The translations under genes were made by a program, and so were the position numbers. Shown here piece by piece: positions 9,193-60,401 of a stretch of DNA of 60,909 bases (within the stretch, counting starts at the first letter, position 1; every line of letters begins with the position of its first letter). Origin of the DNA: an uncultured Gammaproteobacteria bacterium (GTDB taxonomy: Bacteria > Patescibacteriota > Patescibacteriia > UBA9934 > GWF2-40-263). The notes under the pieces were generated by a model, which made no database searches, was not told the origin of the DNA, and worked only from the letters and a program-made list of their open reading frames with translations. Where the stretch lies: contig CAZIDX010000008.1 of NCBI GenBank assembly GCA_964538435.1, positions 1 to 60,909 on the forward strand. The letters run 5' to 3'.

Positions 9193-9241
9193 GAATCAAG
9201 CAAAAAGAAAGGACCGACTCCGTGGAATCGGTCCAGCTCGC

Positions 9242-10069: not shown

Positions 10070-10081
10070 GTCTCTCACCTC

Positions 10082-17544: not shown

Positions 17545-17613
17545 TCGTAACCCGGTTACGGAGTCTTTGCTAGAGTCAGTCAAAAAGAAAGCCGACCCCG
17601 CAATGGGTCGGTT

Positions 17614-18027
17614 TTAGATTGCAGCGAGCTCTGGAATACGGCCAAAGGCCACCAGGCGCTCTGCAGGGATGTTGCCGATCGGTGCTTCGATCACGCCAAG
17701 CGAAGAGTTCGCAGCATGAACGAATCGTCCAGACTCCGTGGTCATGCCAACATGCCCCACAAGATCGTGCTCGTGTCCCAAGCGTCGCTTGCCCTGACCA
17801 ACCATGAACACGAGGTCACAGGGTCTGAGGTCGTCCGGGTGAACTGGGATCGTGCGTTCAAACTGCTCCTGAGCGTAGCGTGGGAGCCGAATACCAGACT
17901 CAGCAAACACCCACCAGATCATCACAGAGCAGTTCACAATCTCTGGTGCATCCTCCGGCTGAGCACGAAGGATGTACTGCGCGCGACCAACCAGTGTCCG
18001 CGCCCGAGCTACGATTTCTTCGTGCAT
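17614..18027 (-). CDS. NlpC/P60 family cell-wall peptidase (GC-rich islet gene)
   Basis: Catalytic Cys context VNCSVMIWWVF, His GHVGMTT and FVHAANS. ATG at 18027 has GGAGGG upstream, because the track start at 18042 is TTG. Confidence 0.7.
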   Translation of the reverse strand: MHEEIVARARTLVGRAQYILRAQPEDAPEIVNCSVMIWWVFAESGIRLPRYAQEQFERTIPVHPDDLRPCDLVFMVGQGKRRLGHEHDLVGHVGMTTESGRFVHAANSSLGVIEAPIGNIPAERLVAFGRIPELAAI

Positions 18028-18075
18028 AAGGAGTCCCTCCAAATCGTACGTCGATAAGAATAGGGGATTTCATTC

Positions 18076-18117
18076 CCAACGTCCAGCGTCCAACGTCCAG
18101 CGTCCAATGCTGGACGT
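18076..18117 (+). repeat. 14-nt periodic TCCAA array (A-A-B) ending in a TCCAA-loop hairpin
   Basis: ccaacgtccagcgt occurs twice (18076-18103), then ccaatgctggacgt. 18093-18102 pairs with 18108-17 (10 bp, one GU). The loop is tccaa at 18103-18107. Confidence 0.8.
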
Positions 18118-18126
18118 CGAGGAGGA

Positions 18127-18155
18127 TTGACAAAACCACCAAAATACGCTTAAAT
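18127..18155 (+). promoter_or_regulatory. Promoter of the 18275..19747 gene
   Basis: TTGACA (18127-32), 17 nt spacer, TTAAAT (18150-55). Confidence 0.6.
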
Positions 18156-18274
18156 CCATTTCTAGCCGGCGCCGCCGGTTTAACGCTGAGAATGGACTTG
18201 CGATGCTCAGGCAACCCCTGAGATTGCGCCCGGAACCGCCGGGATCCGCAGCTCAGCACAACACAGGAGGAAGC

Positions 18275-19747
18275 ATGGCTTCCCGAAGAGACGACCGAGA
18301 AGGTGTGCGAAGCGAATATCTCGCCGCGCTCGCCGCTGAGGTGGCTCTTGCCGCCAAACCCGAAACCCTGTTTGCCGAGCGTACCTCGCTCGACATCAAG
18401 GGACGAACCCAAGCTCTCCAGGACGGACAAAGCGCCCTGCGCGAGCCTCTGGTGTCCGCGCACGTGGCAGCTGAGTTTCGCTCGGTTCCGGAGTGGATCA
18501 TCCATCCCAACACCGGCGAGATCTTCTTCGTTGGTGTGAAGATGACTGACATGGGTGAGTCCAGCGCTCGAGTCTACAAGGTGGGTCCCTGTGGCCCGAT
18601 CCCGCTCGACCAGCCAAACGACACCAAGCGCGTAAACGGGCTCCACTTCCCACTGGGAAGCAACGAGCCTGCCTGGACCGCTGTTCTCCAGTCCTCTCTC
18701 TGCGGAAAGGGAAGCAAGTCGCTCCAGTTCATCTGGGGAGACGACGTCTTCCGCCTCGGCTGGCCCAAGGCGAGTGAGGCTCGAGCCGCGACCTACCACC
18801 ATGCCCTGCACGCTTACGTGGATGTAAATGCTCGTAAGCACCTGATCGACCTGAATCTCTGGCGTCAAAGCAAGGTTGTCAGCTATTCAACCAAAGGGAT
18901 TCTCGATCTCTATGCGGCGTATGCTGGTGACGACGAACATGCCGAACTCGAGTACGCCACGGTCATCGAGGGGCACTTGATCCTGGTGCTAACCACGATC
19001 CTGCCTGATGAGCGAGCGCGCCTGATCTGGTGGTTCACACCAGAAGGAGATCGTTGCGAGCACAAGCTTCCACTTGGCAGCAACGTCAGTCGCGACGGGT
19101 TCCTCATCCGCAACGGGCTCCTTCACTTCGTGCGAACAGGCTACATGGGGTACACCCCCTCTCAGTTGACAGAGGACGGTCTGATCGAGGGGAACCGCAG
19201 CTGGCTCATGCCCGAAGGTGGATACATCCGTCGGGTAGGTAACCGGGTCATGCTCATCCAGCGCATGGGGATTGGTGAGCAGAACCCCAGCTTCTGCGTC
19301 ACAGACATGCTCTCTGGTCTCCGATACGGTGGCGAAGAGCACGTCATCCAGGGTGAGTTCAAGGACATCCAGTTGAACCACAACGCCATCCTGCTCCTTT
19401 GGGTGCGTGGAGGCATTCCTCGCTGGACGCGCTGGCCCATCGTCGCGAGCAAGCTGCTCGAGGTGGGGCCAGAAGAGGCTCTCGAGAACGAGTGGGACAT
19501 CGATGAGGGGACGCAGGCCGAACGTCTGGTGGTCTACCGCGACAACATCGGCTTCGTGGTCCACTCAAGCTACACGCACCCCAAGCTTGTCTGGAGCAGG
19601 CATTCTGGTTTGACCCAGGAGCTGCGCAGCCACAACGACAAGCCTGTCTGGGTCCCGGCCTATGGTCGGTTCGTGGTCGTGAGCTTTGGCTCCGGCACGA
19701 TCTACGTTCGCGCGTACAAGCCCCCGTTCGAATACGAATCGAACTAG
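18275..19747 (+). CDS. Hypothetical 490-aa protein (GC-rich islet gene)
   Basis: ATG at 18275 is preceded by AGGAGG (18265-70). The track start at 18203 has no SD. The product is Trp/Gly-rich with a beta-strand-like periodicity. I recognise no domain. Confidence 0.55.
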   Translation: MASRRDDREGVRSEYLAALAAEVALAAKPETLFAERTSLDIKGRTQALQDGQSALREPLVSAHVAAEFRSVPEWIIHPNTGEIFFVGVKMTDMGESSARVYKVGPCGPIPLDQPNDTKRVNGLHFPLGSNEPAWTAVLQSSLCGKGSKSLQFIWGDDVFRLGWPKASEARAATYHHALHAYVDVNARKHLIDLNLWRQSKVVSYSTKGILDLYAAYAGDDEHAELEYATVIEGHLILVLTTILPDERARLIWWFTPEGDRCEHKLPLGSNVSRDGFLIRNGLLHFVRTGYMGYTPSQLTEDGLIEGNRSWLMPEGGYIRRVGNRVMLIQRMGIGEQNPSFCVTDMLSGLRYGGEEHVIQGEFKDIQLNHNAILLLWVRGGIPRWTRWPIVASKLLEVGPEEALENEWDIDEGTQAERLVVYRDNIGFVVHSSYTHPKLVWSRHSGLTQELRSHNDKPVWVPAYGRFVVVSFGSGTIYVRAYKPPFEYESN

Positions 19748-19777
19748 GCCCGCGCAACCGAGCCAGGCTCGGCATAC

Positions 19778-19803
19778 AGGAGTTCCTTCGGGAACTCCTT
19801 TTC
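19778..19803 (+). terminator. Intrinsic terminator after the 18275..19747 gene
   Basis: Stem aggagttcc / ggaactcct with loop ttcg, followed by tttc. Confidence 0.7.
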
Positions 19804-19832
19804 AAATACTCGTTATTCATTTCAAAGTTTAA

Positions 19833-19920
19833 CTTCCAACGTCTGACTTCCAACGTCTGACTTCCAACGTCTGACTTCCAAAGTCAGGCTTCCAAAGTCA
19901 GGCTTCCAAAGTCAGGCTTC
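19833..19920 (+). repeat. Tandem array of six 14-nt units: 3x cttccaacgtctga then 3x cttccaaagtcagg
   Basis: Exact 14-nt period. Each unit has an invariant TCCAA plus a 9-nt variable part that is partly reverse-complementary between the two halves. The central hairpin is ctgact-tccaa-agtcag (19871-19887). Confidence 0.85.
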
Positions 19921-20044
19921 TAATTTCTCAAACAGAAAACCCCCGCGCGAGCAGACAATATCGACATCGAATGTCCATGTGGTGTTGGTGGGGTATTTAT
20001 GTGGTTGAAACAAAAAAACGACCAGTATGAACTGATCGTTTTTG

Positions 20045-20119
20045 TGGTACACCGGGTGGGGTTCGAACCCACGGCCAAGAGATTAAGAGTCTCCTGCTCT
20101 ACCACTGAGCTACCGGTGC
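20045..20119 (-). tRNA. tRNA-Lys (anticodon CTT), CCA encoded
   Basis: Hand-folded cloverleaf. Acceptor gcaccgg/ccggtgt, D arm gctc-agtggta-gagc, anticodon arm ggaga-CTCTTAA-tctct, T arm gtggg-ttcgaac-cccac, then A-CCA. Confidence 0.85.
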
Positions 20120-20161
20120 ATAGAAAAATTGTGGATCAACGGCAATAGTATGCCAAGAATA

Positions 20162-20190
20162 TTGACAATCGTCAATATCTGCGGTAGTAT
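20162..20190 (+). promoter_or_regulatory. Promoter of tRNA-Arg
   Basis: TTGACA (20162-67), 17 nt spacer, TAGTAT (20185-90). It lies 28 nt upstream of the mature 5' end. Confidence 0.6.
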
Positions 20191-20218
20191 CTTGCTGTGA
20201 ACAAAACCTTCACCCTGT

Positions 20219-20295
20219 GCGGGTGTAGCTCAGCTGGATAGAGCGCGTGGCTTCGGACCACGAGGTCGGGGGTTCGAGTCCTCCCGCCCGCACCA
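20219..20295 (+). tRNA. tRNA-Arg (anticodon TCG), CCA encoded
   Basis: Acceptor gcgggtg/cgcccgc, D arm gctc-agctggata-gagc, anticodon arm cgtgg-CTTCGGA-ccacg, T arm ggggg-ttcgagt-cctcc, then A-CCA. Confidence 0.9.
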
Positions 20296-20346
20296 CAAAA
20301 ACTACCAGAAATCTGGTGGTTTTTGTTTTGTCTGAGTTTTTATGCC

Positions 20347-20373
20347 AACATCCAGTGTCCAACACTGGGTGTT
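20347..20373 (+). repeat. TCCAA-loop hairpin (11-bp stem)
   Basis: aacatccagtg-TCCAA-cactgggtgtt with one GU pair. It has the same 14-nt spacing from an upstream CCAA as the arrays at 18076 and 19833. Confidence 0.75.
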
Positions 20374-20449
20374 GAATATTGTAAAACCCCCCAACTTTTG
20401 CTGAGGTTTTTTGTTTGTCAAAACATAACAAACTTTTTGTTGCAAACCC

Positions 20450-20478
20450 TTGACTTTCCACTGATTTTGTGGTAAATT
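20450..20478 (+). promoter_or_regulatory. Promoter of the LysM-vWA gene
   Basis: TTGACT (20450-55), 17 nt spacer, TAAATT (20473-78). Confidence 0.6.
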
Positions 20479-20550
20479 ACTCTCTTCCTACGGGCCAATC
20501 TAGACACACTAAACCCCTTTACCCCGTATGGATTCGAAGAGGAGAATCTG

Positions 20551-21444
20551 ATGCAGCAGTTCCTGCAGAACGTCCGCGCCCGTCTGGGCCGTCTGTCCCC
20601 CCGTCAGCGTCGCATCGGCACCATCGTCGGCATCTTCGTCCTGGCCTTCATGCTCGCCCTCGTCCTGTGGCCGAGCGGTGACGGCGCCATCGAGGTCGAC
20701 CCGGCCGACACCCAGCACAACGAGGTCACCCACGTCGTGCAGTCCGGCGAGTACCTGATTGCCATCGCCAAGGAGCACCAGGTGCCCTGGCAGGCGGTCG
20801 CCACCCGCAACCAGACCGATCTGGACCAGCTCGCCAACGAGCGGTGCGAGAAGCTCTCCGAGCGCTACCGCAATCGCACCAACGGTGGACACTACTGCGC
20901 CGAGCAGTTGGTCTACCAGGGGCGCAAGATGTACGGCCTCAACTCGCTCCAGCCTGGCGACAAGGTCATCATCCCGCTCACCAGTCACCCCGTGGTCGAC
21001 TCGGTGATGCAGTCCATCCCGGGCCAGTCCATCGCCATCGTGGTCGATGACACCGGCTCCATGGGCAACGACATCAGCGAGGTCAGCGCGTGGTACATGC
21101 GCGCCACCGGCCAGTTCGGCAAGGACATCGCCACGGTAGTCCTGTACGCCGACGGGTTCACGCGCGAGTACGAGTCCACCGGCCAGGTCCAGTTCCGGAC
21201 CACCGGTTCGGTCGAGACCACGCGCGCCGCCCTGGAACAGGCAGCAGCCTCGAACCCGGACGCCATCGTGCTCGTCAGCGACGAGCCCGGCGACGACTGG
21301 AAGGGCTTCCGCGGCCTGGACCTCCCGCCCGTCTACTCCCACTCGCTCGAGGAGGAGTCGCACGACAACCTGCGCAAGGTGTCGCGCAAGACCGGTGGCG
21401 AGTTCATGCGCCCGCCCCTGCACGCCGTGATCGCGTCCCGCTGA
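20551..21444 (+). CDS. Membrane-anchored LysM plus von Willebrand factor A domain protein (GC-rich islet gene)
   Basis: GAGGAG SD, N-terminal TM (IGTIVGIFVLAFMLALVLW), LysM (HVVQSGEYLIAIAKEHQVPWQAVATRNQ) and vWA MIDAS-like IAIVVDDTGSMGND. Confidence 0.7.
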   Translation: MQQFLQNVRARLGRLSPRQRRIGTIVGIFVLAFMLALVLWPSGDGAIEVDPADTQHNEVTHVVQSGEYLIAIAKEHQVPWQAVATRNQTDLDQLANERCEKLSERYRNRTNGGHYCAEQLVYQGRKMYGLNSLQPGDKVIIPLTSHPVVDSVMQSIPGQSIAIVVDDTGSMGNDISEVSAWYMRATGQFGKDIATVVLYADGFTREYESTGQVQFRTTGSVETTRAALEQAAASNPDAIVLVSDEPGDDWKGFRGLDLPPVYSHSLEEESHDNLRKVSRKTGGEFMRPPLHAVIASR

Positions 21445-21534
21445 CACGACGGTAACGAGCCCTGCGCTCGACAAAGCACCCTGTGAGGTGACTCTGTCGT
21501 CGCGCAGGGTGTTTTGTTTGTATGGCTCATTCGG

Positions 21535-21563
21535 TTGACAAAACAGTAAAATAGTGGTATCTT
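21535..21563 (+). promoter_or_regulatory. Promoter of the 21591..21896 gene
   Basis: TTGACA (21535-40), 17 nt spacer, TATCTT (21558-63). Confidence 0.6.
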
Positions 21564-21590
21564 ATGCTGTCCCCAACACCCGAGGACATC

Positions 21591-21896
21591 ATGAGACACC
21601 TCGTGGTCCTAACGCTCGTCAACGTAGTTCATGCGCAAGCCCAGTACGCGTGTGACGATCCGATCTGCATCAACTGGGAAAACATCTTCATCCTCCTCTT
21701 ATTCGCAGCATTCCTGGTGGTCTGCGCGATCGTCATTGCTTGCCTTGCTGGAATTCTGTACGTGCTGATGACGATCATCCTCCTGATCGTTCATCTGTTC
21801 AGGTGCTGCACCAGCGCCAAGTACAGACGCGAGTACAAAGAAGAAGTCGCTCGCAGCAAAGCAGAGCGAGAAGAAGCGAAACGCCAGGGCGACTAG
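21591..21896 (+). CDS. Small secreted/membrane protein (signal peptide plus one or two TM, basic tail)
   Basis: ATG at 21591 lies after GAGGA. The track start at 21564 falls immediately after the -10 box. MRHLVVLTLVNVVHAQA is signal-like. A long hydrophobic segment and the tail KYRREYKEEVARSKAEREEAKRQ follow. Confidence 0.5.
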   Translation: MRHLVVLTLVNVVHAQAQYACDDPICINWENIFILLLFAAFLVVCAIVIACLAGILYVLMTIILLIVHLFRCCTSAKYRREYKEEVARSKAEREEAKRQGD

Positions 21897-21980
21897 CCCA
21901 CAACGCACGTCCCCGCACGTGCAACGAAACACCCAATCGGTGACTCGTTGCTGTGCGGGTGTTTTGTTTCCTTTGAATAC

Positions 21981-22009
21981 TTGACAACCGAGTGAATAAT
22001 GATTAGTTT
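21981..22009 (+). promoter_or_regulatory. Promoter of the 22037..22261 gene
   Basis: TTGACA (21981-86), 17 nt spacer, TAGTTT (22004-09). Confidence 0.5.
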
Positions 22010-22036
22010 AGTAAGCTTGCTCAATGGAGGTGGAAG

Positions 22037-22261
22037 TTGGCAATCCTGTTCACGATTGCGTTCGTGATGCTCGCTGTGGTCGGCTACAAGCTGTCCTGGC
22101 ACATCGGTCTGATCATTCTGTTCTCAGGCCTCTCGTTCGCTTGCCTGATCTTCGCGATCTCCCGCAGGCGCAAGTACTCTGTCCAGATCAGTTGGATGGC
22201 GGAAAACCTCGACGACCTCATCCCAGACTGCGGCGATATCGACATCGACCTCTGGGATTGA
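22037..22261 (+). CDS. Small two-TM membrane protein with acidic C-terminus
   Basis: TTG start is preceded by GGAGGTGG (22026-33). AILFTIAFVMLAVVGY and IGLIILFSGLSFACLIFAI are hydrophobic helices. Confidence 0.45.
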   Translation: MAILFTIAFVMLAVVGYKLSWHIGLIILFSGLSFACLIFAISRRRKYSVQISWMAENLDDLIPDCGDIDIDLWD

Positions 22262-22329
22262 CTCCCTCTGCTGCGCTATGGTTCTCCCTGGCGCTTTTTC
22301 AATTAGAAAAGCGAGTCGGCGTAGACTCG

Positions 22330-23019
22330 CTAAGGGTGGGGAAGACGCGCAGGGGATCCCATGCGACGCCAGGTCGTAAACGGCACACGCACGCGGCAGG
22401 TGCGATCGCGCTGTCTGCACTGCGCAAAGTCAGTGCTTCCAGTCTTTGCAAATGAACACACGCAGGTGGCTTGGCAGATCCCAGGTGGGAGCTGATCAAA
22501 ACTGATCATCTGCATGCCGTGGCGTTGGCCAATGTGAATCGCCTTGATGTTCGTGGTCGTTCCCAGGATATTGGAGTTGCGGTAGCGATCCAGGAACAGG
22601 CGGTAGAGCACGTCCCCAATCGGCATGGAGCGCGCGCTACCGCTCTTGAATCGATACTCACGCACAACCACGTACGTACCGAGCTCGTACCACATCTCGC
22701 CTCGATCGTCTCGCTCAAGCTCCCAAAGGATGATGCAGCCAACCACACAGTTGTGAGATGTACGATCCACCGCGATCACCACGCGCCCATCGTACGCAGC
22801 AGGCTCAAGCTCAGCTCGGGTCTTGGTCAGAAGATGTCTCTCCTCGCGCGTGATGTCTTCGAGCTCGTTATACCAGCTTTCATCGAGGGCGAGCAAGCGC
22901 TCACCCCACAAGTAGTCGATCCCAGGTGTACCCCGACGATCCAGGGCGAATCGAACAGCCGCTCCCAAACGACTGGTGCGGATTGAAGTATTCAGATCAG
23001 TAGCCATCATCCCAAACAT
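22330..23019 (-). CDS. GNAT-fold-like acyltransferase with Cys-rich C-terminus (weak call; GC-rich islet gene)
   Basis: ATG at 23019 has AAGGAGAG upstream. The beta4-alpha3-beta5-like stretch ELGTYVVVREYRF...IGDVLYRLFL...NILGTTTN resembles the GNAT core. The motifs are not canonical. Confidence 0.45.
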   Translation of the reverse strand: MFGMMATDLNTSIRTSRLGAAVRFALDRRGTPGIDYLWGERLLALDESWYNELEDITREERHLLTKTRAELEPAAYDGRVVIAVDRTSHNCVVGCIILWELERDDRGEMWYELGTYVVVREYRFKSGSARSMPIGDVLYRLFLDRYRNSNILGTTTNIKAIHIGQRHGMQMISFDQLPPGICQATCVCSFAKTGSTDFAQCRQRDRTCRVRVPFTTWRRMGSPARLPHP

Positions 23020-41140: not shown

Positions 41141-44100
41141 ATGAGTTACAACCACCAAGAGATTGAAAAGAAATGGCAGGATCGTTGGTTTTCAACCGAC
41201 GTCTTTCACGCCAAGAACGACTCTGATAAAGAGAAGTTTTATTGCTTGATTGAGTTCCCATACCCATCGGGGGCTGGCCTGCACGCTGGGCACCCACGAA
41301 GCTACACAGCGCTCGACGTGGTTGCGCGCAAGCAGCGTCATCTTGGCAAGAACGTTCTCTATCCAATTGGATGGGATGCGTTTGGGCTTCCAACAGAAAA
41401 CTACGCCATCAAGACCGGACGTAAGCCGCAGGATATTACAAAAGAAAATACAGACAAATTCCGTGAGCAGCTTAAGGGTCTTGGAATCTCTTTTGATTGG
41501 TCGCGCGAGATCAACACCACAGACCCGGAATACTACAAGTGGACGCAGTGGATGTTCCTTGAGTTTTTCAAAGCAGGCCTCACGTACAAATCAAATCTTG
41601 CTATCAACTGGTGTCTCTCTTGCAAGATTGGGCTTGCAAACGAAGAAGTGGTAAACGGTGCCTGTGAGCGCTGTGGTGGGGAAGTAGAAAAGCGGGACAA
41701 AGAGCAATGGATGATTGAGATCACAAAATACGCCGAGGAGCTTCTATCAGGACTCGATGAGGTCAATTATCTTGAAAAGATTAAAACGCAGCAACGCAAC
41801 TGGATCGGAAAGAGCGAAGGAGCCATGGTGGACTTCGAGGTTGCTGACCCACTGGGGCCTGTCACACCAGTGATCCGAGTGTTCACCACACGCCCAGACA
41901 CACTTTTTGGTGCAACCTACATGGTGCTCGCTCCAGAGCACGAGCTGGTTGAGCAGATTACGAGCAGTGAAAAGATGGGAGAGGTGAGCGAGTACGTCAA
42001 AGAAGCAAAAGCAAAAGCAGATATTGACCGAACGAACGACGAGAAAGAAAAAACAGGAGTCTTCACGGGTAGCTATGCAATCAACCCAGTCAATGGAGAA
42101 AAGATTCCAATCTGGGTAGCTGACTACGTAATGATGGGCTACGGAACAGGAGCCATCATGGCCGTCCCAGCCCACGACGAGAGGGACTTTGCATTTGCGA
42201 CCAAGTACGAGATCCCAATCATCAAGGTGGTTGAGCCTCCAGTGCTCCAGAACGTTATCAACCCAGACATCGGCATCGCCCACGCCATGCAGTCTGACAT
42301 CAAGATCGAACATGAATGCTACACAGGCGAAGGAAAGGCGATTAACTCTGGAGAGTTCAACGGACGTTCAACCGAAGAGTTCAAGACCGCCATCACAAAA
42401 TGGCTCGAAGAAAAAGAACTCGGAAAAGCCGCAACAAACTACAAGCTCCGAGACTGGGTCTTCTCCCGCCAGCGCTACTGGGGTGAGCCAATCCCGCTTG
42501 TGTACTGCCAGGCATGTCACAATAAGACAATTGAAAGAGATAATGTTGTAATCTTTCACGGCTGGGAAGACACATCCGAGCACACATTCATCCCAGGGCT
42601 CCGAGAAGAGCTCGAGAAAAAGAACTACAACACCCACGCCTTTGACGCTCCAAATCCAATGGAGCCGAATTTTGATGAGTGGTGGAAGTTTGCAAACGAA
42701 AAACTCGAAGGAATCAACACAGAAAACCTCGTACTCGTCGGTCACAGCATGGGTGGTGGGCTTGCGTGTAAGCTCGCAGAGAAATACAAAGTCAAAAAAC
42801 TTGTTCTTGTAGCTCCGGTTGGGTTCAAAGGTTCAGATGAGTACTTTGCTCAGTTCAAAGATGAGCTCACAGAGGATGAAATGAACACCTTTCGCTCTTA
42901 CATGGACCGAGAACTTGATATTAAAAAAGTGAAAGAGAACGTTGATGAAATCACTGTTATCTTTGGAGAGGATGACAAGTGGATCTCAAAGGAAGTTCAG
43001 GATTTCTACAAAACAAACTTTGGTGACGTGGCACAGATTGTCACCTGGCCAGGTGTAGGTCATATGGGGGGAGAAGAAGGAGCCAAGTTTGCTACAAGAA
43101 TCTCAAAGTATTTTGACACAAAAGACTTCTCAGGCTGGATCCCAGTTCCAGAAGCCGAGCTTCCTGTCACGCTCCCAGACGTAGAAAAGTACGAGCCAAC
43201 AGATTCAGGCGAGTCTCCGCTTGCAGTCATCGAGGACTGGGTGAATACAACCTGTCCTGAGTGTTCAGGGCCAGCCAAGCGAGAAACTGACACCATGCCA
43301 AACTGGGCAGGATCAAGCTGGTACTTCCTCGCCTACGCAATGAAACTCACAAACGATTTCAAATTCCCAATGAGCTCGTACGCGGATGTTCTGAAAAAAT
43401 GGATGCCTGTCGATTTCTACAACGGTGGAAACGAACACATCACACTTCACCTTCTTTACTCACGCTTTTGGAACAAGGTGATGCATGATCGTGGTCATGT
43501 GCCAGTGTCAGAGCCTTACAAGCGACGTCATGGTCACGGCCTTGTGCTTGCAGAGGATGGCACGAAGATGAGTAAGTCAAAGGGGAATGGAGTAGATCCA
43601 GATGAAGTCATTCGAGAGTACGGAGCTGATGCGCTGCGCATGTACATCATGTTCATGGGTCCATTTGAAGAACCAGCACCATTTAACATGAGCGGACTCA
43701 TCGGCGTGCGCCGCTTCCTCGACAAAGTCATGCGCTATGTTTCAGATTGGAACGAGAGTGGTGCAGAAGACCTCGGAAAGATTATCGAACCTCACATCAA
43801 AAAGGCTTCAGATGATATTGATAACTTTAGGTTTAACACAGCAGTTTCTAGTTTCATGAAGCTCTTCAACGAGCTCGGCGACAAAGCTTGCACCAAAGAT
43901 CAGCTCAAGCGGATCCTCACCGTGCTTTGCCCATTTGCTCCTCATATCGCAAACGAGTGCTGGGAAATGATCGGGGAGACAGGTCTTGTTGAAGAACAAG
44001 CTTGGCCAGAGTTTGACGAGAGTCTGCTCATCCGCGACACCATCGAAATGGGAGTCCAAGTAAACGGAAAAGTCCGTGCCAGCATCCAGCTTGCTCCAGA

Positions 44101-44227
44101 CGCAAGCGAGGAGGAAGCAAAAAAGATCGCGCTCGCAGAAGAAAATATTCAAAAACATCTTGAAGGCAAAGAGATTGTAAAGATCATCTACGTACCAGGT
44201 CGCATCCTAAACATTGTCGTGAAATAG
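41141..44227 (+). CDS. leuS: Leucyl-tRNA synthetase carrying an inserted alpha/beta-hydrolase domain
   Basis: HIGH (HAGH), KMSKS, CP1 editing domain (TRPDTLFGATYMVLAPEH) and zinc knuckles. The product is 1028 aa because of an insert of about 205 aa at residues ~460-665. Confidence 0.95.
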   Translation: MSYNHQEIEKKWQDRWFSTDVFHAKNDSDKEKFYCLIEFPYPSGAGLHAGHPRSYTALDVVARKQRHLGKNVLYPIGWDAFGLPTENYAIKTGRKPQDITKENTDKFREQLKGLGISFDWSREINTTDPEYYKWTQWMFLEFFKAGLTYKSNLAINWCLSCKIGLANEEVVNGACERCGGEVEKRDKEQWMIEITKYAEELLSGLDEVNYLEKIKTQQRNWIGKSEGAMVDFEVADPLGPVTPVIRVFTTRPDTLFGATYMVLAPEHELVEQITSSEKMGEVSEYVKEAKAKADIDRTNDEKEKTGVFTGSYAINPVNGEKIPIWVADYVMMGYGTGAIMAVPAHDERDFAFATKYEIPIIKVVEPPVLQNVINPDIGIAHAMQSDIKIEHECYTGEGKAINSGEFNGRSTEEFKTAITKWLEEKELGKAATNYKLRDWVFSRQRYWGEPIPLVYCQACHNKTIERDNVVIFHGWEDTSEHTFIPGLREELEKKNYNTHAFDAPNPMEPNFDEWWKFANEKLEGINTENLVLVGHSMGGGLACKLAEKYKVKKLVLVAPVGFKGSDEYFAQFKDELTEDEMNTFRSYMDRELDIKKVKENVDEITVIFGEDDKWISKEVQDFYKTNFGDVAQIVTWPGVGHMGGEEGAKFATRISKYFDTKDFSGWIPVPEAELPVTLPDVEKYEPTDSGESPLAVIEDWVNTTCPECSGPAKRETDTMPNWAGSSWYFLAYAMKLTNDFKFPMSSYADVLKKWMPVDFYNGGNEHITLHLLYSRFWNKVMHDRGHVPVSEPYKRRHGHGLVLAEDGTKMSKSKGNGVDPDEVIREYGADALRMYIMFMGPFEEPAPFNMSGLIGVRRFLDKVMRYVSDWNESGAEDLGKIIEPHIKKASDDIDNFRFNTAVSSFMKLFNELGDKACTKDQLKRILTVLCPFAPHIANECWEMIGETGLVEEQAWPEFDESLLIRDTIEMGVQVNGKVRASIQLAPDASEEEAKKIALAEENIQKHLEGKEIVKIIYVPGRILNIVVK

Positions 44228-51302: not shown

Positions 51303-51812
51303 ATGCCAAGACAAAAAGGAAAAGGTGAGAATCTCATAACCTCCACTCTAGAATTTCTTAGCAATGGTGCTTGTGAAGCAAATCACTTGTTTGATTTGTG
51401 GACAGGGGACTCCAGAACAAGGAAAAGTATGGGGTGTGAAAAAACCTATCAAAGCAAAAAAGCCAGACTCAGGTATTTAAAAGAGAAAAAACTTATCGCT
51501 GTTAAAAAGAAAGAAGATAAAGTGATTGTTGAGCTGACAAAAAAAGGTGACAGAGAAAGAAAAAAACGCAGAAAAAATAAAGCAAGCAAACTACCTGTCA
51601 ATCAGGTGTGTTTAGTCACCTATGATATTCCTACTACTGCAAATAAGGCCAGAGATGCTTTTCGGTTCTTTTTGAAAAAACTTGGTTTCAAGAAAATAAA
51701 CCAGAGTGTCTGGCAGACAGAGTTTAATGTCATCGATGAGGTTCTGGGTTTTGTAAGGAAGGCAAAGATAGGTGAGTGGGTGTGTGTCTTTGTCGCAGCA
51801 AAAACAGGGTAA
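51303..51812 (+). CDS. wHTH plus Cas2-like (ferredoxin-fold) domain protein, PaaX-like architecture; paralog 2
   Basis: 169 aa. VCLVTYDIPTTANKARDAFRFFLKKLGFKKINQSVWQT. It aligns along its full length with 6988..7515. Confidence 0.6.
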   Translation: MPRQKGKGENLITSTLEFLSNGACEANHLFDLWTGDSRTRKSMGCEKTYQSKKARLRYLKEKKLIAVKKKEDKVIVELTKKGDRERKKRRKNKASKLPVNQVCLVTYDIPTTANKARDAFRFFLKKLGFKKINQSVWQTEFNVIDEVLGFVRKAKIGEWVCVFVAAKTG

Positions 51813-51817
51813 TTCTT

Positions 51818-51831
51818 TTTCGTAGGTGCGA
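51818..51831. promoter_or_regulatory. Palindrome variant TTCGTAGGTGCGAA just 3' of paralog 2
   Basis: 51810-51831 aattctttttcgtaggtgcgaa is the reverse complement of 51279-51300 with one mismatch, so the gene is bracketed by 22-nt inverted repeats. Confidence 0.55.
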
Positions 51832-51984
51832 ACAGGAATCACGATATTCAAAACACGCACTACAGCTGGATACATATGTTGTTCAGTGGAACAAGTATTG
51901 AGAAGAGCATTCCTGTATTTTTTGTTGTGGAAAGTGCTGTGTAAAAACCGTGGATGAACAGGGGACTACTCACCCTTGAAAAAC

Positions 51985-52012
51985 TTGATTCGAAATGTCA
52001 GAATGGTATATT
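51985..52012 (+). promoter_or_regulatory. Promoter of the 52018-52298 transcript
   Basis: TTGATT (51985-90), 16 nt spacer, TATATT (52007-12). Confidence 0.5.
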
Positions 52013-52017
52013 TAATT

Positions 52018-52298
52018 ATGCCTTACGGTCGAGTGGGTGTGTTCCACCTACAACAATCTAAACCTGGCCTGGGAATGCGCGGCTTCGGCAACGCAATAAG
52101 GCCAACCCGGTTCATCCGACTGATGTGGACGACATGGTGGATTCGACAAGCTGCCATCATCGCTACAGTGCCGGATAGATGCGTGCTCGAGAGGACTGCA
52201 AACAGGAGTACTCGTCAGACCGAACATGAACCCGTAATCATTGGGCCGCCCACTTCCCCGTTAGGCGCTAAAAGCCACCCAGCATTGGGTGGTTTTTC
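52018..52298 (+). ncRNA. Candidate structured ncRNA (~280 nt, GC-rich) between its own promoter and terminator
   Basis: Hand-found helices are 52031-39/52247-55, 52065-69/52100-04, 52076-79/52092-95 with a UUCG-capped tip, 52109-15/52226-32 and 52134-40/52154-60. The terminator is ccaccca-gcat-tgggtgg+ttttt (52275-97). The only ORF runs through the terminator and the next promoter. Confidence 0.4.
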
Positions 52299-52303
52299 AT
52301 TGA

Positions 52304-52332
52304 TTGACAATTTGGGTTATTTTTCCTAATCT
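52304..52332 (+). promoter_or_regulatory. Promoter of the 52367 gene
   Basis: TTGACA (52304-09), 17 nt spacer, TAATCT (52327-32). It is similar in sequence to the promoter at 53853. Confidence 0.6.
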
Positions 52333-52366
52333 AACCCTCTGCTCTTTCCAAGACGGAGATCTGTAC

Positions 52367-53356
52367 ATGACGTACAAACATAACTGCACAGGCTGCGGCA
52401 AATGCAAGCTCGAAGTTGAGTTGCCTCAGAGGGTCAGGAAGATTCTAGGTGACAATACAGCGATCGCAGAACCGTTCTTCATCAACGATCCAACGGACAT
52501 GGGTGCGCTCAAAGACGCATTTGTGCAGAGGGTGGGCGGTGAAGGTCCGATGATTGATGCTGTTGCATATGCAAATGCCGTGATGCGTCTTTCCTTGAAT
52601 GTGAAACGTGGTGCCCTCGAAGTCATGATGACTCACTACCAAGAGATGAGTAATCGAATGGTGGAGATTTGGGGATCGCACGAAAGCAGTGTTCGAGCCC
52701 TGATGGCTGCTGAAAAAGCTGGTATCTGTTTTGCGACCTACGAAGAAACCATTGAGATGTTTCGCATGGTCGTTTCTGTGCTTGAGAAAACTCACAGCTT
52801 TGAGCCTGCTGAGGACGAAACAGAAGAGCAGCAGCTTGTGGAATTGTGGGAGGTCATTGCGTGGCGCTTCGGAAAGTGCTTCGGTGCTGATAAGTACCTT
52901 GAGCGTGAAGAACTCCCGCCTTCAATGCAAGTCCCTACATTTGCTCCTGCGTTCTGCATCTCAATGCTCATGCAGCTAGGTGCCAACTCTGCACTCGATG
53001 TCATGTTGCGCAGAGCAGGCGAGGTGAATGAAGCCGAACGCGATCAGGTGTGTGTCGAGGATTTCTGGGCAGTCGTTGCAGCTCTCTCGAGCCGGAGTGT
53101 CACACTCGAAGAGTTCAAGAAACTCATCGAAATATCTGGGGTGTGGAAGTTTGTTGCGCTAGGACCGCTCGCACAATCGCGTGTGGTAAATGCGCACGTG
53201 TTCAGGCAATTAATAAACAATCCTCAGATCATCCAGGACCGCAGTGCTAATGAGATTGTCTCGCTCCTAAACGACTGGCACCAAGTTCGTCGCCGTGTCC
53301 GTCTCAATGAGTTTGCTCAGCGTTGGGGAAGCCTCGATGCTTACACAGCCTGGTGA
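52367..53356 (+). CDS. Hypothetical 329-aa protein, homologous to the N-terminal two-thirds of 53910..55322
   Basis: ATG at 52367 lies after GGAGA and downstream of the promoter. N-terminal CTGCGKCK. Alignable blocks with the fused paralog include DFWAVVAAL.../DIWLAVRAAH... and EIVSLLNDWHQ/EIMNLTEQWHS. Confidence 0.5.
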   Translation: MTYKHNCTGCGKCKLEVELPQRVRKILGDNTAIAEPFFINDPTDMGALKDAFVQRVGGEGPMIDAVAYANAVMRLSLNVKRGALEVMMTHYQEMSNRMVEIWGSHESSVRALMAAEKAGICFATYEETIEMFRMVVSVLEKTHSFEPAEDETEEQQLVELWEVIAWRFGKCFGADKYLEREELPPSMQVPTFAPAFCISMLMQLGANSALDVMLRRAGEVNEAERDQVCVEDFWAVVAALSSRSVTLEEFKKLIEISGVWKFVALGPLAQSRVVNAHVFRQLINNPQIIQDRSANEIVSLLNDWHQVRRRVRLNEFAQRWGSLDAYTAW

Positions 53357-53362
53357 GCGTTC

Positions 53363-53827
53363 ATGCGAGCAAGCAAGAAACCCAAGAAGCCTCCTCTCAC
53401 CCCGAGCGTCGTCCAAGCACCCGTGTCATCCAAGCCTGCACCAGAACCCGAACTCGAGGAAACCAAGCTTGCCCCCGATGGAATCGACTGGGACTGGGTC
53501 ATGGCCGAGCTCATGGTTGAGGATCAAGTTCCTGATCTGGACCCACGACTCGTGCGCATCACGATTGTGCACGGCCTGCTCCGCCAGGGTGATCGCATGT
53601 CCTCCATGGACCGACTACCCACACGGAGCCGTAGGCGATTCTGGAAAGAGTGTCGAGGCGCTGGAGTCAATCGCTCAAAGCTCGAAGCCGTTCGCGACCA
53701 GCTCAAGACACGTGGACTCATCAAGCTCAAGGCAGGAAAGTACTCCCTCGCCAGTCAGCTGAGTGTTGCCGACGAACTCCACATCCTTCACGACCGCATC
53801 CGAGAACTCTCGGAGCGCTACGTATAG
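53363..53827 (+). CDS. Hypothetical 154-aa protein (Pro/Lys-rich linker plus winged-helix-like domain), homologous to the C-terminal third of 53910..55322
   Basis: It is in the same frame as 52367..53356, separated only by TGA plus 2 codons. GIDWDWVMAE...LDPRLVRITIVHGLLRQGDRM...FWKECRG...GLIKLKAGKYSLA matches GLDWDWVMAE...LDPCIVRVIIVHGMLRSGDRV...LWKECEG...GLIERKKGKYSLA. Confidence 0.5.
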   Translation: MRASKKPKKPPLTPSVVQAPVSSKPAPEPELEETKLAPDGIDWDWVMAELMVEDQVPDLDPRLVRITIVHGLLRQGDRMSSMDRLPTRSRRRFWKECRGAGVNRSKLEAVRDQLKTRGLIKLKAGKYSLASQLSVADELHILHDRIRELSERYV

Positions 53828-53909: not shown

Positions 53910-55322
53910 ATGCGAGTCATCATGAAGCTCGTGAATCAAATAGAGGTTACGTACCCAATCGTTCCCAACTCCAACCACCTGCGAGACCAGGAATTCATCA
54001 AGGAAGCACTCATCCAAGTCTGTTGTGAAAGCGAGCCCCCAGTTTGGGTCGAAATGTGGTTCCCGATCGCTATGGTCCGCCACTATCTGGAGCAAAACCC
54101 CATCAGGGTCAAGCAGGCCAACGATATCTTGTCCAAGATCATTCTGGATCACACAAAGATCTGGGGTGGAGCCTCACACGAAGCTCTTGGTGCGCTTGCG
54201 ATTGCAGAGGCCGTAGGGCTTCAGTTCGATTCCCATCGCGAGACCATGCAAGCGTTCACGCGCATACTCAAGGTCATCAACCGGAATAAAAAGTGGGACC
54301 ACTCAACGATCGCACTTTGGAAACGTGCAATCAGTGCAATGACTTCACGGGCCACGCCCGGCGGACAAGACTTCACTGAGTTGTATGACCGGCTAGAGGT
54401 TCCACCCTGGCTTCCTGGCTATTGCCTGGATCTGCTCTGTCAACTCGATGTAGACGACCCAACAGGCGTGAAGCACGTCTCATTCGATGATGGCACCACA
54501 GTTGTCAAAATGGACATTGGAGCTCCAGACATCTGGCTTGCTGTAAGGGCGGCACATGAACTCACACTCGGTGAAGTGCAGATCAGACGCTTCATCAAGG
54601 AGCATGGGCTTGTTAGGTTCATCTGGCTTGGTATGTGTTATAGCGAGAAGCTGATCAATCGATCGGCGTTCCTTCGCATGACCGCAAAACCAAGCCTCAT
54701 CAAAAACCTCTCCATGATCGAGATTATGAATTTAACAGAGCAGTGGCACAGTGCTGGGTGTCCTGATCTCGACAAGTTCATCAAGGTCGGGGGGACAGTC
54801 GAAAGCTTCGAGAGGCATCAGCAAGCTGAGCAAGAGCGACAGGCAGAGATACAAAGGCAGAAGCGTCGCAAACCTCAGCCCAAGCCCGAGCCAAGGGCGG
54901 CAGCGCCAGTCTACGTTGCTCCCAAACCCGAGCCTAAGCCAGAACCTGCCGCACTTGTTCCCGAAGGACTTGATTGGGACTGGGTCATGGCTGAGTTCAC
55001 TGGAGTCGAGGAGGTTTTCCCAAATCTGGATCCATGCATTGTGCGCGTGATCATCGTGCACGGAATGCTCAGGTCTGGAGACCGAGTCATGCCCATGGGA
55101 AGGCTTCCATCCAAGAAACTTCCAAAGCTCTGGAAAGAGTGCGAGGGTCCGCTGTGCTCGGACAAAGGGCAGTTCACAGGCGCACTCGAGCATCTCCGCA
55201 GAAGCGGCCTGATCGAACGCAAGAAAGGGAAGTACTCCCTGGCGCGAGCTCATCCACGCAACAAAGAGATGCATCCCATCCTCGAGCAGATCGAAGCGGT
55301 CTGCCAGAGGTACGCATCCTGA
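53910..55322 (+). CDS. Hypothetical 470-aa protein, the fused paralog of the 52367 and 53363 pair
   Basis: ATG at 53910 is preceded by GGGAGGA. It is colinear with the two upstream ORFs, including a Pro/Lys/Glu-rich linker (KPQPKPEPRAAAPVYVAPKPEPKPEP). Confidence 0.55.
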   Translation: MRVIMKLVNQIEVTYPIVPNSNHLRDQEFIKEALIQVCCESEPPVWVEMWFPIAMVRHYLEQNPIRVKQANDILSKIILDHTKIWGGASHEALGALAIAEAVGLQFDSHRETMQAFTRILKVINRNKKWDHSTIALWKRAISAMTSRATPGGQDFTELYDRLEVPPWLPGYCLDLLCQLDVDDPTGVKHVSFDDGTTVVKMDIGAPDIWLAVRAAHELTLGEVQIRRFIKEHGLVRFIWLGMCYSEKLINRSAFLRMTAKPSLIKNLSMIEIMNLTEQWHSAGCPDLDKFIKVGGTVESFERHQQAEQERQAEIQRQKRRKPQPKPEPRAAAPVYVAPKPEPKPEPAALVPEGLDWDWVMAEFTGVEEVFPNLDPCIVRVIIVHGMLRSGDRVMPMGRLPSKKLPKLWKECEGPLCSDKGQFTGALEHLRRSGLIERKKGKYSLARAHPRNKEMHPILEQIEAVCQRYAS

Positions 55323-57728: not shown

Positions 57729-58253
57729 TTACGCATCATCGAGCGAGTTGTGCGTAGTGGGTTGCTCTGCAAATTCGATTTCCTCTCCGGTCGTGAGGTC
57801 AACGAACACGAGAACGCCACCGCGCTTTGGCTTCAGTGCGATCCAGTTGTCACCAATGCGTAGCATCTGTGCTGTGCGCTTGAAGTGCACCTCGAGCGTT
57901 GCATTGATCTGTCCGTGACTGACTCTTGTCGACCCAACGAGCAGGTCCCACCCTCGAATCATAGCGAGGCGAGGCGGATTGCCCTTCACAGCACCGCACT
58001 TGGGGCAGAACGGTAGCGTGGCTCCATCCCTCTCGTGATACGAGTTCCTGCACGGCTCGTGGATATGAATCCTCATGTCCGTCATCGTCAGTGCAGCCAG
58101 CCTCAGATGGACCGTGCCACGGAATCCATCACTGCCATAGCTGGTCTTGCCAGTCTTCCCCATGGTGATAGCACCATCAGCGTTTCGAACAATGGTCCAG
58201 GTCGGCGCCATCGAGTATCCCTTCTCGTCCTTGACGGGCTCTTCAAGCGACAT
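57729..58253 (-). CDS. Hypothetical protein with a zinc-ribbon-like CxxxxH...CPKC motif (GC-rich islet gene); start uncertain
   Basis: 174-aa ORF. ATG 58253 lies inside the -10 (TAATGT) of a TTGACA-17 promoter (58250-58278), so the internal ATG at 58211 (MAPTWTIV) is an alternative start. Confidence 0.45.
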   Translation of the reverse strand: MSLEEPVKDEKGYSMAPTWTIVRNADGAITMGKTGKTSYGSDGFRGTVHLRLAALTMTDMRIHIHEPCRNSYHERDGATLPFCPKCGAVKGNPPRLAMIRGWDLLVGSTRVSHGQINATLEVHFKRTAQMLRIGDNWIALKPKRGGVLVFVDLTTGEEIEFAEQPTTHNSLDDA

Positions 58254-58328
58254 TACGCAAGTAAGTCCTCTATGTCAACCAATAAGAAAACCCGCACCTC
58301 CGTAGAGGGCGGGTGTTTTCGTTTCGGC

Positions 58329-59177
58329 CTAGTCGCCGAAGTGGTTGAACCCTTCGCGCTCGAACCGAGGCATGGGCGCACGCTTGTGACGCGTCGAGCG
58401 CATCAGCTGCAAGAACCGATCGCGCTTGCCATGCGGGTCGTCCATGGCCATGACTGCCTTCTCACCGCCAGCAGCGAACGCGCGCGCGAACGCATCCAGG
58501 GTCGAGTAGGACATCTCCAGGTCGGCCTCGTCACTCTGCCGGTTGCCGTCCGCGTCCTCGCCTTCGAGGTCCGCGCTCGGCACCTTGTCGATGATCCACT
58601 GCGGAGCGTTGAGCATGCGCAAGATGGACCAGACGTCCTCCTTGACGAACTGCACCAGCGGACCGAAGTCGCCATCCGCATCGCCGCCACCCTTGGTGTC
58701 GTAGCCCACGATGGTCTCGGACCAGTTGCAGGTGTTGATGAACAGGTAGCCGTTCACCTCGGCCCAGAGACGTCCCAGAGTCGTGCGCAGACGCGCCTTG
58801 ACATTGCCTTCGGCGATCTTCTTCCTCTTGTCCGAGAGCGCTTCCCAGCCATTGGTGCCCTCGATGTCGGCTTCGAGCATGAAGGTCGCGAACGTACGAT
58901 CGAGCTCGCGATCGGCGCATCGCACGCCAGCCCACTCGCAGAGTCGGTGAGCATCGGTCTTGGCGTAGTCAGCCGATCCGATCGGGATCGTGAGTGCCAG
59001 AACGCGCTCCGGGCCCAGAGCCTTGACCAGAAGACCCAGAGCAGCGGCGCTGTCAGCACCTCCACTCTTGTTGAGCAAGACACCCTTGGCGCCGGTGCTG
59101 TCCACAAACTCGCGGATCCACTCGATCTGCGCGAGCATCTCGTCGTAGGTGACGGGTTTGAGCATAGGGACGGTCAT
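58329..59177 (-). CDS. nadE: NH3-dependent NAD+ synthetase-like PP-loop ATPase
   Basis: ATG at 59177 is preceded by AAGGAG. PP-loop LNKSGGADSAAA and the NadE-like C-terminal ...STRHKRAPMP. Confidence 0.7.
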   Translation of the reverse strand: MTVPMLKPVTYDEMLAQIEWIREFVDSTGAKGVLLNKSGGADSAAALGLLVKALGPERVLALTIPIGSADYAKTDAHRLCEWAGVRCADRELDRTFATFMLEADIEGTNGWEALSDKRKKIAEGNVKARLRTTLGRLWAEVNGYLFINTCNWSETIVGYDTKGGGDADGDFGPLVQFVKEDVWSILRMLNAPQWIIDKVPSADLEGEDADGNRQSDEADLEMSYSTLDAFARAFAAGGEKAVMAMDDPHGKRDRFLQLMRSTRHKRAPMPRFEREGFNHFGD

Positions 59178-59297
59178 GATGACTCTCCTTACAGTCGATT
59201 GAGAGGGTTGGGTTTCCCACGAGCTCCGCATCAAAACGATGGGGCTCTCATGGAAACCCCCGACTCTAGCGCGCGTGGCTAGGGTCGGGGAAGGGGG

Positions 59298-60401
59298 TTA
59301 CTCGAGTCCTGCGAGCATGGTATCCAGCAGGAACTCCACCGTGGCCTCAGGGTGCATGACCTGGTGGCTCTCCTTGGTCTGGCCGATGACCAGGACGCGG
59401 TAGCCGTCGTCCTTACCGACCTTGACCCGCACCGGAGCGAAGTGCTCCTCACGGACGGCCTTGATGGCGGTCTGGTCGTACAGGTTGAAGACCAGGATGT
59501 GATCCCAGATCCGGTCGTCGCCGTTCAGGTGCGCGATGTTGTCGTGACCACCGCAGAACACGTTGCCGAACCAGGTGGAATCTCCCACCTTGCCCGGGAA
59601 GCAGGGGAGGCCTTCTCGACCTTCCTTGTCGTCAGCCGGCAGGTTGCACCGGTACCAGAGGTGCTGGATCAGGGCTTCCTGCATGGCCTGCAGACGGATA
59701 CCCACCGGGTGACCCGTGTCAGCGAACTCGTCGTAGCAGTCGCGCGGGCTGGCCGCGGCATACGCCGCCCACTTGCTGGTGATGGCCAGCGGGATGCCCA
59801 GGGTCTGCAGGACGTGGAACGCGTAGATGGACGCACCTTCATCGTGCTTGTTGTTCACAGCAGCGAACCAGGGCTTGAGCAGGCCGTTCTCGTCGAAGAC
59901 GAAGTTGCCGTGCTCGTCCACCTCAGCGCCACCCATCATGGACACGCCACGCAGCTTGCGCTGGAGCAGGTTCAGGTAGTAGGGCTTGCCCTCGGCCTCG
60001 CGCAGGTACTGAGCGATGTCGCTCATGCCACCAGCCGCCACGAACACCACGCTGTGGTTCGGGGACTCCTCGAGGATCTGCCAGAACAGGTCGCTGCCCT
60101 TGGGGAAGTCCATTTCCGCGCTGATGTACGGGACATCGAACTGGATGTGCTCGTTGGTCTGCCGACCACCGAAGTTCTTGCCAATGGCCACCGGGACATG
60201 GCTCAAACCGAGCTCATCCAGAGTGCCACGAGCCACACGTGCGCGCATCTCCACCGGGTTGCGGTGAACGATCACGCCACCGATCTTGATCTGACCGTGA
60301 CTCCTCATCCCAGCGAGCATGACCAGGCTGCCTTCTTCGTCCGGATCGTTGCCGGTCTCGCCGTTGAAGATGATGATCGGGGCATTGGGATCTCGAATCA
60401 T
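59298..60401 (-). CDS. Nucleoside hydrolase-like (IUNH-fold) protein, divergent
   Basis: AAGGAG SD. The N-terminal acidic cluster NGETGNDPDEEGSLVMLA resembles DxDxxxDD. AAVNNKHDEGASIYAFHVLQTLGIP resembles the (E)FNi..DPeAA..V motif. Confidence 0.5.
   Translation of the reverse strand: MIRDPNAPIIIFNGETGNDPDEEGSLVMLAGMRSHGQIKIGGVIVHRNPVEMRARVARGTLDELGLSHVPVAIGKNFGGRQTNEHIQFDVPYISAEMDFPKGSDLFWQILEESPNHSVVFVAAGGMSDIAQYLREAEGKPYYLNLLQRKLRGVSMMGGAEVDEHGNFVFDENGLLKPWFAAVNNKHDEGASIYAFHVLQTLGIPLAITSKWAAYAAASPRDCYDEFADTGHPVGIRLQAMQEALIQHLWYRCNLPADDKEGREGLPCFPGKVGDSTWFGNVFCGGHDNIAHLNGDDRIWDHILVFNLYDQTAIKAVREEHFAPVRVKVGKDDGYRVLVIGQTKESHQVMHPEATVEFLLDTMLAGLE

Follow-up and report, generated by a model that had tools for sequence, protein, structure and literature searches.

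The region 52020-52273 on the forward strand of the window (the window being the whole stretch of DNA analysed, 60,909 nucleotides) is an independent RNA gene, served by a sigma-70-type promoter and an intrinsic terminator of its own. Its product is a new RNA family without an Rfam entry, of a familiar kind: a lineage-restricted, orphan, structured non-coding RNA. The reading that we favour, and hold to be probable, is that of a well-expressed and intricately folded RNA which founds a new family of the Uhrbacteria-type CPR bacteria and most likely works in trans, within a ribonucleoprotein, by means of the hairpin called P5 below. An earlier note on this DNA, made from the letters alone, had described the region as a structured, unclassified, non-coding RNA unit; homologues, covariation, the absence of an Rfam match and contigs recovered at the RNA level all agree with that description.

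The coordinates of the gene and of its elements are given in Table 1. The promoter that had been read as TTGATT-16-TATATT at 51985-52012 was found by the promoter scan and is kept in every homologue: in the alignment of the homologous loci the -35 region (CTTGC/TTGAT) and the motif TGnTA(C/T)ATT are always present. The predicted transcription start is 52019/52020, and the 5' end proposed earlier, 52018, is no more than 2 nt away from position 52020, where the closing stem begins. At the RNA 3' end, the minimum free energy (MFE) fold contains a 12-pair hairpin followed by the U-run, i.e. the clean terminator of the earlier note; a hairpin and a U-run occupy this position in all the full-length homologous loci, with stem sequences that are unrelated to one another. 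The terminator scan of the window did not list the 52270-52297 hairpin, an omission that probably arises because the U-run is taken up into the A/U-extended stem. As a whole, the 281-nt stretch folds at -106.7 kcal/mol, which corresponds to a z-score of -3.4 against dinucleotide shuffles (only one of 200 shuffles folds as well); the comparison with shuffled controls that the earlier note had recommended was thus favourable.

Table 1. Positions, in the window, of the RNA gene, its signals and its structural elements
Feature	Positions	Strand	Description	Basis
RNA body	52020..52273	+	254 nt, from first P1 base to the A-run preceding the terminator	nhmmer and covariance-model matches, covariation
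Promoter	51985..52012	+	-35 TTGATT 51985-90, 16-nt spacer, TGn (extended -10) 52004-06, -10 TATATT 52007-12	promoter scan
Intrinsic terminator	52270..52297	+	A-run, stem CCACCCA/UGGGUGG 52275-92, loop GCAU, U-run 52293-97	MFE fold
Conserved upstream element	51937..51984	+	two direct repeats, then a short inverted repeat; accompanies the RNA gene	homology, repeats in all homologues
Closing stem P1, 5' strands	52020..52044	+	P1a 52020-28, P1b 52031-39, P1c 52041-44; partner 52243-52266	covariation
Closing stem P1, 3' strands	52243..52266	+		covariation, helices 1-2
Hairpin P2	52066..52103	+	base 52066-70/52099-103, internal loop GGGAAU / AAUA, upper stem and UUCG loop 52076-95	
P3, 5' strand (CGGU)	52108..52111	+	partner 52219-52222 (ACCG); long-range helix around the inner three-way junction	
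P4-P5 arm	52114..52176	+	P4a 52114-18/52172-76 (AUCCG/CGGAU), P4b 52124-28/52163-67, P5 hairpin 52130-62	
Invariant core (P5 and top of P4b)	52127..52164	+	38 nt, GGACGACAUGGUGGAUUCGACAAGCUGCCAUCAUCGCU; tandem U.G/G.U pairs, bulged A, CGACA-type loop	
Variable hairpin P6	52178..52216	+	base GAUG/CGUC	helices 8-9, per-sequence folds

Just upstream of the -35 lie two direct repeats about 11 nt apart, TGTGTAAAA (51938-46) and CGTGGATGA (51949-57). Repeats of the forms TGTG(G/T/C)A(A/T)A and (T/C)GTGGAT(G/A)(G/A)A are found at the same position in loci L002-L012, L022, L026, L029, L031 and L034, and so are kept even in L022, a distant relative. Homology with a related marine contig begins exactly at 51937: identity with this marine relative is about 88% across precisely 51937-52297 and ends there, the flanks being unrelated. 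The repeats are a possible regulator-binding site, either DnaA-box-like (TGTGGATAA) or response-regulator-like; for the DnaA-box reading, the motif is not enriched elsewhere in the window. Their conservation upstream of the promoter suggests that transcription of the RNA may be regulated.

The family counts about 25 copies, with 14 distinct full-length sequences, in MAGs of Candidatus Uhrbacteria and in metagenomes, and one distant relative besides. A degenerate pattern of the core matched 12 loci, six among the GTDB species representatives (4 of the 6 titled Candidatus Uhrbacteria) and six more in metagenomes; the same scan gave no match in viral contigs, and BLAST returned no phage match and, for plasmids, only 25-nt noise. 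A few 31-mers of the region are common to many marine, sediment, subsurface and groundwater runs, RNA runs included, and the window itself was found in seawater metagenome runs. As ndk lies immediately upstream of the RNA gene at many loci, the surroundings of another nine Ndk proteins of Uhrbacteria type were fetched and searched with the profile, which yielded four more full-length lineages (L026-28, L029-30, L031-33 and L034/37) and one distant relative. Four other related Ndk lineages had no copy within 4 kb of ndk in a covariance-model search with the filters off, which leaves two readings, a gene that changes its place or one that part of the group lacks. In the distant relative L022-24, nothing of the family sequence is left but CCGGUUU and the core hairpin, set in an RNA that otherwise differs. 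This second RNA (L022 6273-6600, also in L023 and L024) is longer, about 300 nt, and very stable (z = -8.1); it has the same upstream repeats, promoter and terminator as the family and is located between a GATase gene and a GIY-YIG gene.

The genes of the window form the set of a small-genome CPR bacterium (PilB, FtsH, S1, GyrA, RNase III, RNase Y, IF-2, LeuRS, ComEC and Ndk), and the closest Ndk proteins are named Candidatus Uhrbacteria or Patescibacteria. Locus L005 (CAYHRJ010000015.1) carries the Uhrbacteria-type ComEC-MBL-Ndk-RNA block and is nearly identical to the groundwater contigs L009 and L011; its title, 'uncultured Gammaproteobacteria', is probably a binning or labelling error. Elsewhere in the window, the leucyl-tRNA synthetase (41141-44227, + strand) contains an inserted alpha/beta-hydrolase domain (Ser_hydrolase/Abhydrolase, around amino acids 469-648), which sits between the editing and the anticodon-binding domains. 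Segments 8001-10000, 17001-23000 and 58001-60000 have 55-63% GC against a background of 45-50%, with long overlapping ORFs on both strands.

RNAalifold, run on 11 and on 16 sequences, recovered in both cases the closing stem, hairpin P2 and the core hairpin. On the MAFFT alignment the 44 pairs were 97.3% paired and 13 of them showed changes on both sides; not one of 500 shuffles reached the observed percentage of pairing, double-change count or covariation score, and the slid controls were 26-55% paired. Three helices were added from per-sequence folds and inspection: P3, which is long-range; P4, in two parts beneath the core; and P6, a variable hairpin. A covariance model of 68 pairs, R1, was built and then used to realign 15 sequences: there the pairs were 91.1% paired and 31 showed compensatory double changes (slid controls, 29-47%), counts which are biased towards the model since they come from an alignment fitted to it. 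The architecture is that of two nested three-way junctions: the closing stem P1 leads to an outer junction with P2, and P3 closes an inner junction with the P4-P5 arm and P6. About 20 nt, among them an invariant CAA, are unpaired between P1 and P2, and about 20 nt between P3 and the return strand of P1.

Support for the individual helices is as follows. The 21 pairs of P1 (helices 1-2) are 95-98% paired and six of them are changed on both sides. P2 (helices 3-4) has 11 pairs, 97-99% paired, six with compensatory changes (GGCC/GGCC, GGUUC/GAACC, GAUCC/GGAUC), and its conserved internal loop reads GRGAAU/AAHA across the family. P3 (helix 5) is 92.6% paired with compensatory changes in three of five pairs; the per-sequence folds agree, and other members have CGGUU/AACCG, AGGUUU/AAACCU or GGUUUU/AAAACC. 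P4a covaries (CUAUCAC/GUGAUAG, UUAUUCAA/UUGAAUAA, ACUGUU/AACAGU, UCCGCUC/GAGUGGA), as does the base of P6 (GACAC/GUGUC, GACG/CGUC, GAUG/CAUC). The peripheral elements vary: P6 is deleted in L001, and L002 and L034 have extra hairpins. Three of the four helices that had been drawn by hand for the earlier note belong to the 68-pair model. Helix 52031-39/52247-55 is P1b and the UUCG-capped stem at 52076-95 is the top of P2, both with compensatory changes; helix 52134-40/52154-60 is one of two registers of the invariant hairpin, and the second RNAalifold run chose the other. The fourth, 52109-15/52226-32, can form in the window and in the closest clade but is not kept family-wide, the conserved helix being 52108-11/52219-22.

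The strand is clear: members of the family score 146-260 bits with the covariance model on the + strand versus 10-33 bits on the opposite one (236.7 versus 12.6 bits for the window RNA), and the G.U pairs of the invariant hairpin, which would be A.C on the other strand, fit the + strand only. A protein-coding gene at 51976-52329 was considered and rejected, as the earlier note had anticipated for this ORF. The stretch left open across the core varies from 31 to 123 amino acids in three different phases among the homologues, so that neither frame nor length is conserved; contigs differ from the window by 1-2 nt indels. These indels and the shifting reading frames exclude a coding role. The core has no third-position variation, and the ORF product has no Pfam match. 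For L003 (875-1177), L006 (7384-7722), L007 (760-1104) and L027 (6657-6851), ORF lists as well as public gene calls show spurious ORFs of 64-114 amino acids running over the RNA gene. As to expression, metatranscriptome contigs of 158-234 nt project within 52034-52262, inside the RNA bounds. Two small-RNA-fraction libraries from freshwater sediment gave contigs of 182-202 nt at a depth of 33-59, wholly inside the L011 copy and with no coverage of the flanks, and at least two different members of the family occur in one metatranscriptome.

The most constrained part of the RNA is the 38-nt core. Its sequence is 100% identical in groundwater and subsurface metagenome contigs with diverged flanks, identical from seawater to groundwater, and nearly invariant across the 16 aligned sequences; both strands are invariant and do not covary. 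Purifying selection is strongest on this hairpin. P5 pairs in two registers, one chosen by each RNAalifold run (52134-40/52154-60 by the first), and the variants fit both: L026 and L034 favour one, L022 the other. L034 has a 7-bp hairpin in place of the P5 loop, which cannot therefore be the sole determinant. Pairing of the P5 loop with another part of the RNA was also considered; from alignments checked by eye, such complementarity is not conserved between clades.

Comparison with known RNAs gave no family for the gene. The scan of the whole window with Rfam 15 at gathering thresholds, another of the checks proposed beforehand, found only two tRNAs, both elsewhere; at E<=10 the 51700-52600 segment had only a meaningless microRNA match, and the RNAs of the window, L022, L005 and L002 had only noise, well below gathering scores. 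ARAGORN found no tmRNA in the window or in L001-L006. The literature searched by topic and by sequence string held nothing on the RNA at 52020-52273, and the literature searched described no lineage-specific non-coding RNA for CPR/Patescibacteria. An RNA associated with a reverse transcriptase (retron msr-msd or DRT non-coding RNA) was rejected, since neither the flanking proteins of the window nor the genes called in the fetched loci include an RT domain; the RNA is also closed off by a terminator. The closest parallels in kind are the orphan structured RNAs such as the raiA motif RNA, Bacteroidales-1, Chloroflexi-1 and OLE. These resemble the Uhrbacteria RNA in having their own promoter and terminator, a covarying multi-junction fold, invariant blocks, abundance in transcriptomes, restriction to one lineage and neighbours that are uninformative as to function. 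They differ from it in that Rfam 15 shows no sequence or structure match between them and the Uhrbacteria RNA, which occurs in CPR/Patescibacteria.

Where selection bears most strongly on an invariant hairpin while the periphery varies, action in trans and sequence-specific reading by a conserved partner may be inferred. An invariant element carried by a scaffold is the pattern of ribonucleoprotein RNAs such as the SRP, 6S, OLE and RNase P RNAs. On the strength of this pattern of conservation, the RNA would most likely be the RNA component of a ribonucleoprotein that acts in trans: its P5 hairpin of 38 nt would dock a conserved protein or a cellular machine in a sequence-specific manner, and the rest of the fold would serve as scaffold. 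It does not regulate the downstream gene in cis, nor does it need the neighbouring paralog genes. A bolder version, which we put forward tentatively and regard as rather unlikely, makes it the core of a previously unknown housekeeping ribonucleoprotein of the CPR lineage, ranking with the 6S, OLE or SRP RNAs and engaging a central machine through the hairpin. If so, that machine would be the factor-binding site of the ribosome, RNA polymerase or a processing enzyme, and the RNA might compensate for functions lost in reduced symbiotic genomes.

The main specific rival, and the most concrete alternative, is a 6S-like role, to which we give a somewhat lower probability still. The RNA would bind RNA polymerase as 6S and Ms1 RNAs do, P1 and the P3-P4-P5 arm serving as duplex arms and the two strands of about 20 nt as an open-promoter-like bubble, and would sequester the enzyme according to growth state. 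Several features speak in favour of it: the gene stands alone with a strong promoter and terminator and its transcript is abundant in small-RNA libraries; in a topology that may recall that of 6S/Ms1 RNA, a long end-pairing stem leads to a large two-strand region, unpaired over about 20 nt on each side, and to a second, irregular arm of about 30 bp. Reduced CPR genomes, moreover, are expected to keep mostly core RNAs. On the other hand, the Rfam 6S models gave no match at E<=10 on four family members, and the RNA has two additional conserved branches, P2 and P6, and a length of 255 nt against the usual 160-200 nt. Its strongest conservation, unlike that of known 6S RNAs, lies in the distal hairpin and not around the bubble.

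Considerably less probable is the idea of the earlier note that the RNA is the RNA component of a system with the adjacent orphan winged-helix proteins, p350, p154 and p519. The conserved backbone of the neighbourhood is ComEC - MBL - Ndk - [RNA] - (TrpR-like) - AstE-like, with lineage-specific genes inserted on either side of the RNA gene. The inserts in the window are, upstream, a 178-aa orphan, a GNAT gene and a PaaX/Cas2-like protein and, downstream, the p350/p154/p519 module. In support of a partnership, the window and loci L007, L008, L026 and L002 have p519-family genes directly downstream of the RNA in the same orientation, L002 with five or more in tandem. The family is also tiny: when 1.84 billion cluster representatives were scanned in full with HMMER, 32 belonged to it, of which nine or more are encoded at the RNA-adjacent position (a word-index search had found one homologue only). 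These loci, however, make up a single subclade, and the RNA with the same invariant core is present in at least ten distinct loci without a p519-like gene in the flank. Ten such loci have, next after the RNA, a gene of the AstE-like, DUF2914 or peptidase type, a small orphan, or a convergent gene of 269 or 640 aa. The RNA being conserved where p519-like genes are lacking, it does not depend on those proteins, and the partnership is refuted as a general explanation. The association is lineage-specific and could stem from a single insertion beside the RNA gene: all the p519-bearing loci share the upstream GNAT gene, as fits one inherited insertion. Between the RNA and the p519-type genes stands a strong terminator. 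The proteins, for their part, match no RNA-binding family or fold, and their sole recognisable part looks DNA-binding. The p519-type proteins are thus at most a subclade-specific addition beside the RNA, of which they could still make use.

Apart from this question, the p519 family deserves a description. Its members are orphans of about 470-530 aa, in which a Pro/Glu-rich linker joins an N-domain of unknown fold to a winged-helix-like domain at the C-terminus. The p350, p154 and p519 proteins have no Pfam, PHROGs or NCBIfam family match, p519 giving only a negligible sub-threshold NCBIfam match to TonB; its AlphaFold model is mediocre (pLDDT 61.6) and matches no PDB fold. The family is tandemly expanded beside the RNA gene, from two to at least five copies, at 52367-53356, 53363-53827 and 53913-55322 of the window (where one copy is split into two genes), L002 1196-8000, L026 6999-8468 and L008 1578-2966. 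On the upstream side, the exact protein of the 169-aa gene is not on record. The window also has two paralogous small PaaX_M (Cas2-like) proteins, encoded at 6988-7515 (- strand) and 51303-51812 (+ strand), each at the edge of a variable or GC-rich region, namely 7740-10100 (57-63% GC) and the islet around the RNA.

It is very improbable that the gene is a far-diverged form of one of the universal RNAs (RNase P RNA, tmRNA or SRP RNA) which the standard models miss in this lineage; the earlier note had already remarked on the absence of their motifs. The prior favours it, small genomes having few non-coding RNAs, and the 38-nt invariant element has the level of conservation of such RNAs. Some superficial likeness exists as well: GGAUUCGAC recalls the tmRNA 5' region, AAGCUGCC in P5 can be set against the SRP AAGCAGCC, and the 3' tail is RCCA in the groundwater clade. 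Against it, neither Rfam nor ARAGORN gave a match at any threshold, and the defining features of all three RNAs are absent. For tmRNA, the resemblance consists of GGAUUCGAC after about 12 nt, as at the tmRNA 5' end, of paired ends and, in some clades, of RCCA after the closing stem. But the RNA has no G3.U70 (the third closing-stem pair is C-G), no acceptor partner, no tag frame and no T-arm, the 3' strand running on into P1b; the motif varies in the family (GGAUACAAC, GGAUCAGAC) and is replaced in L034, and the tail reads RCUA or RCGA in other clades. RNase P RNA, suggested by UCCGG/ACA-ACCG, was rejected as neither GGAAAGUCC nor ACAGAA..GGCUUA is present in the sequence or the family consensus; the supported fold is fully nested, with no P4 pseudoknot, and no RNaseP model matched any of four members. 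SRP RNA was rejected for want of a GNRA tetraloop, of the CAGG/AGCA symmetric loop and of an SRP model match.

Slighter still is the chance that the RNA is a decoy or mimic of the ribosomal GTPase-associated centre, P5 in one register resembling helix 43 of 23S rRNA (the L11/thiostrepton 1067 loop) and binding L11 or a translation factor. The segment AUGGUGGAUUCGACAAGCUGCCAUCAU aligns with E. coli 23S 1057-1081, AUGUUGGCUUAGAAGCAGCCAUCAU; the two agree at 21 of 25 bases and share the hairpin register, and no local alignment with 23S ranked higher for the window or for L001. The score of 23 in this comparison with E. coli 23S is, however, at the level of shuffles (mean 21.7, maximum 30), so that the resemblance is statistically indistinguishable from chance and serves as a lead at most; the RNA lacks the helix 42/44 context, no equivalent of helix 44 or of the junction is evident, and the segment is not the best match in other family members. 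Hardly credible, finally, is a role as leader or riboswitch acting in cis on the downstream gene, or else as the coding sequence of the 117-aa ORF, and the comparative data refute it. The RNA does lie upstream of same-strand genes in the window, and the ORF spans it, but in most loci the gene that comes next is unrelated or convergent, the stems of the terminator are free to vary and share no sequence that could alternate with P1, and the ORF is broken in the homologues, where its phase and length differ.

To return to the trans-acting RNA that we favour, its interest lies first in the organisms that carry it. The CPR/Patescibacteria, a major part of bacterial diversity, have hardly been cultured, and their genomes are very small. 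A complex, covarying fold of 255 nt, a 38-nt element identical from seawater to groundwater and expression together make the RNA a strong candidate for an important cellular function. The alignment, the structure and the covariance model allow a survey of all CPR genomes, and gene calls can be corrected where, as in several pipelines, spurious ORFs of 60-120 aa are called across the RNA. The gene also marks a chromosomal spot beside which variable gene islets accumulate, the tandem orphan p519 family among them.
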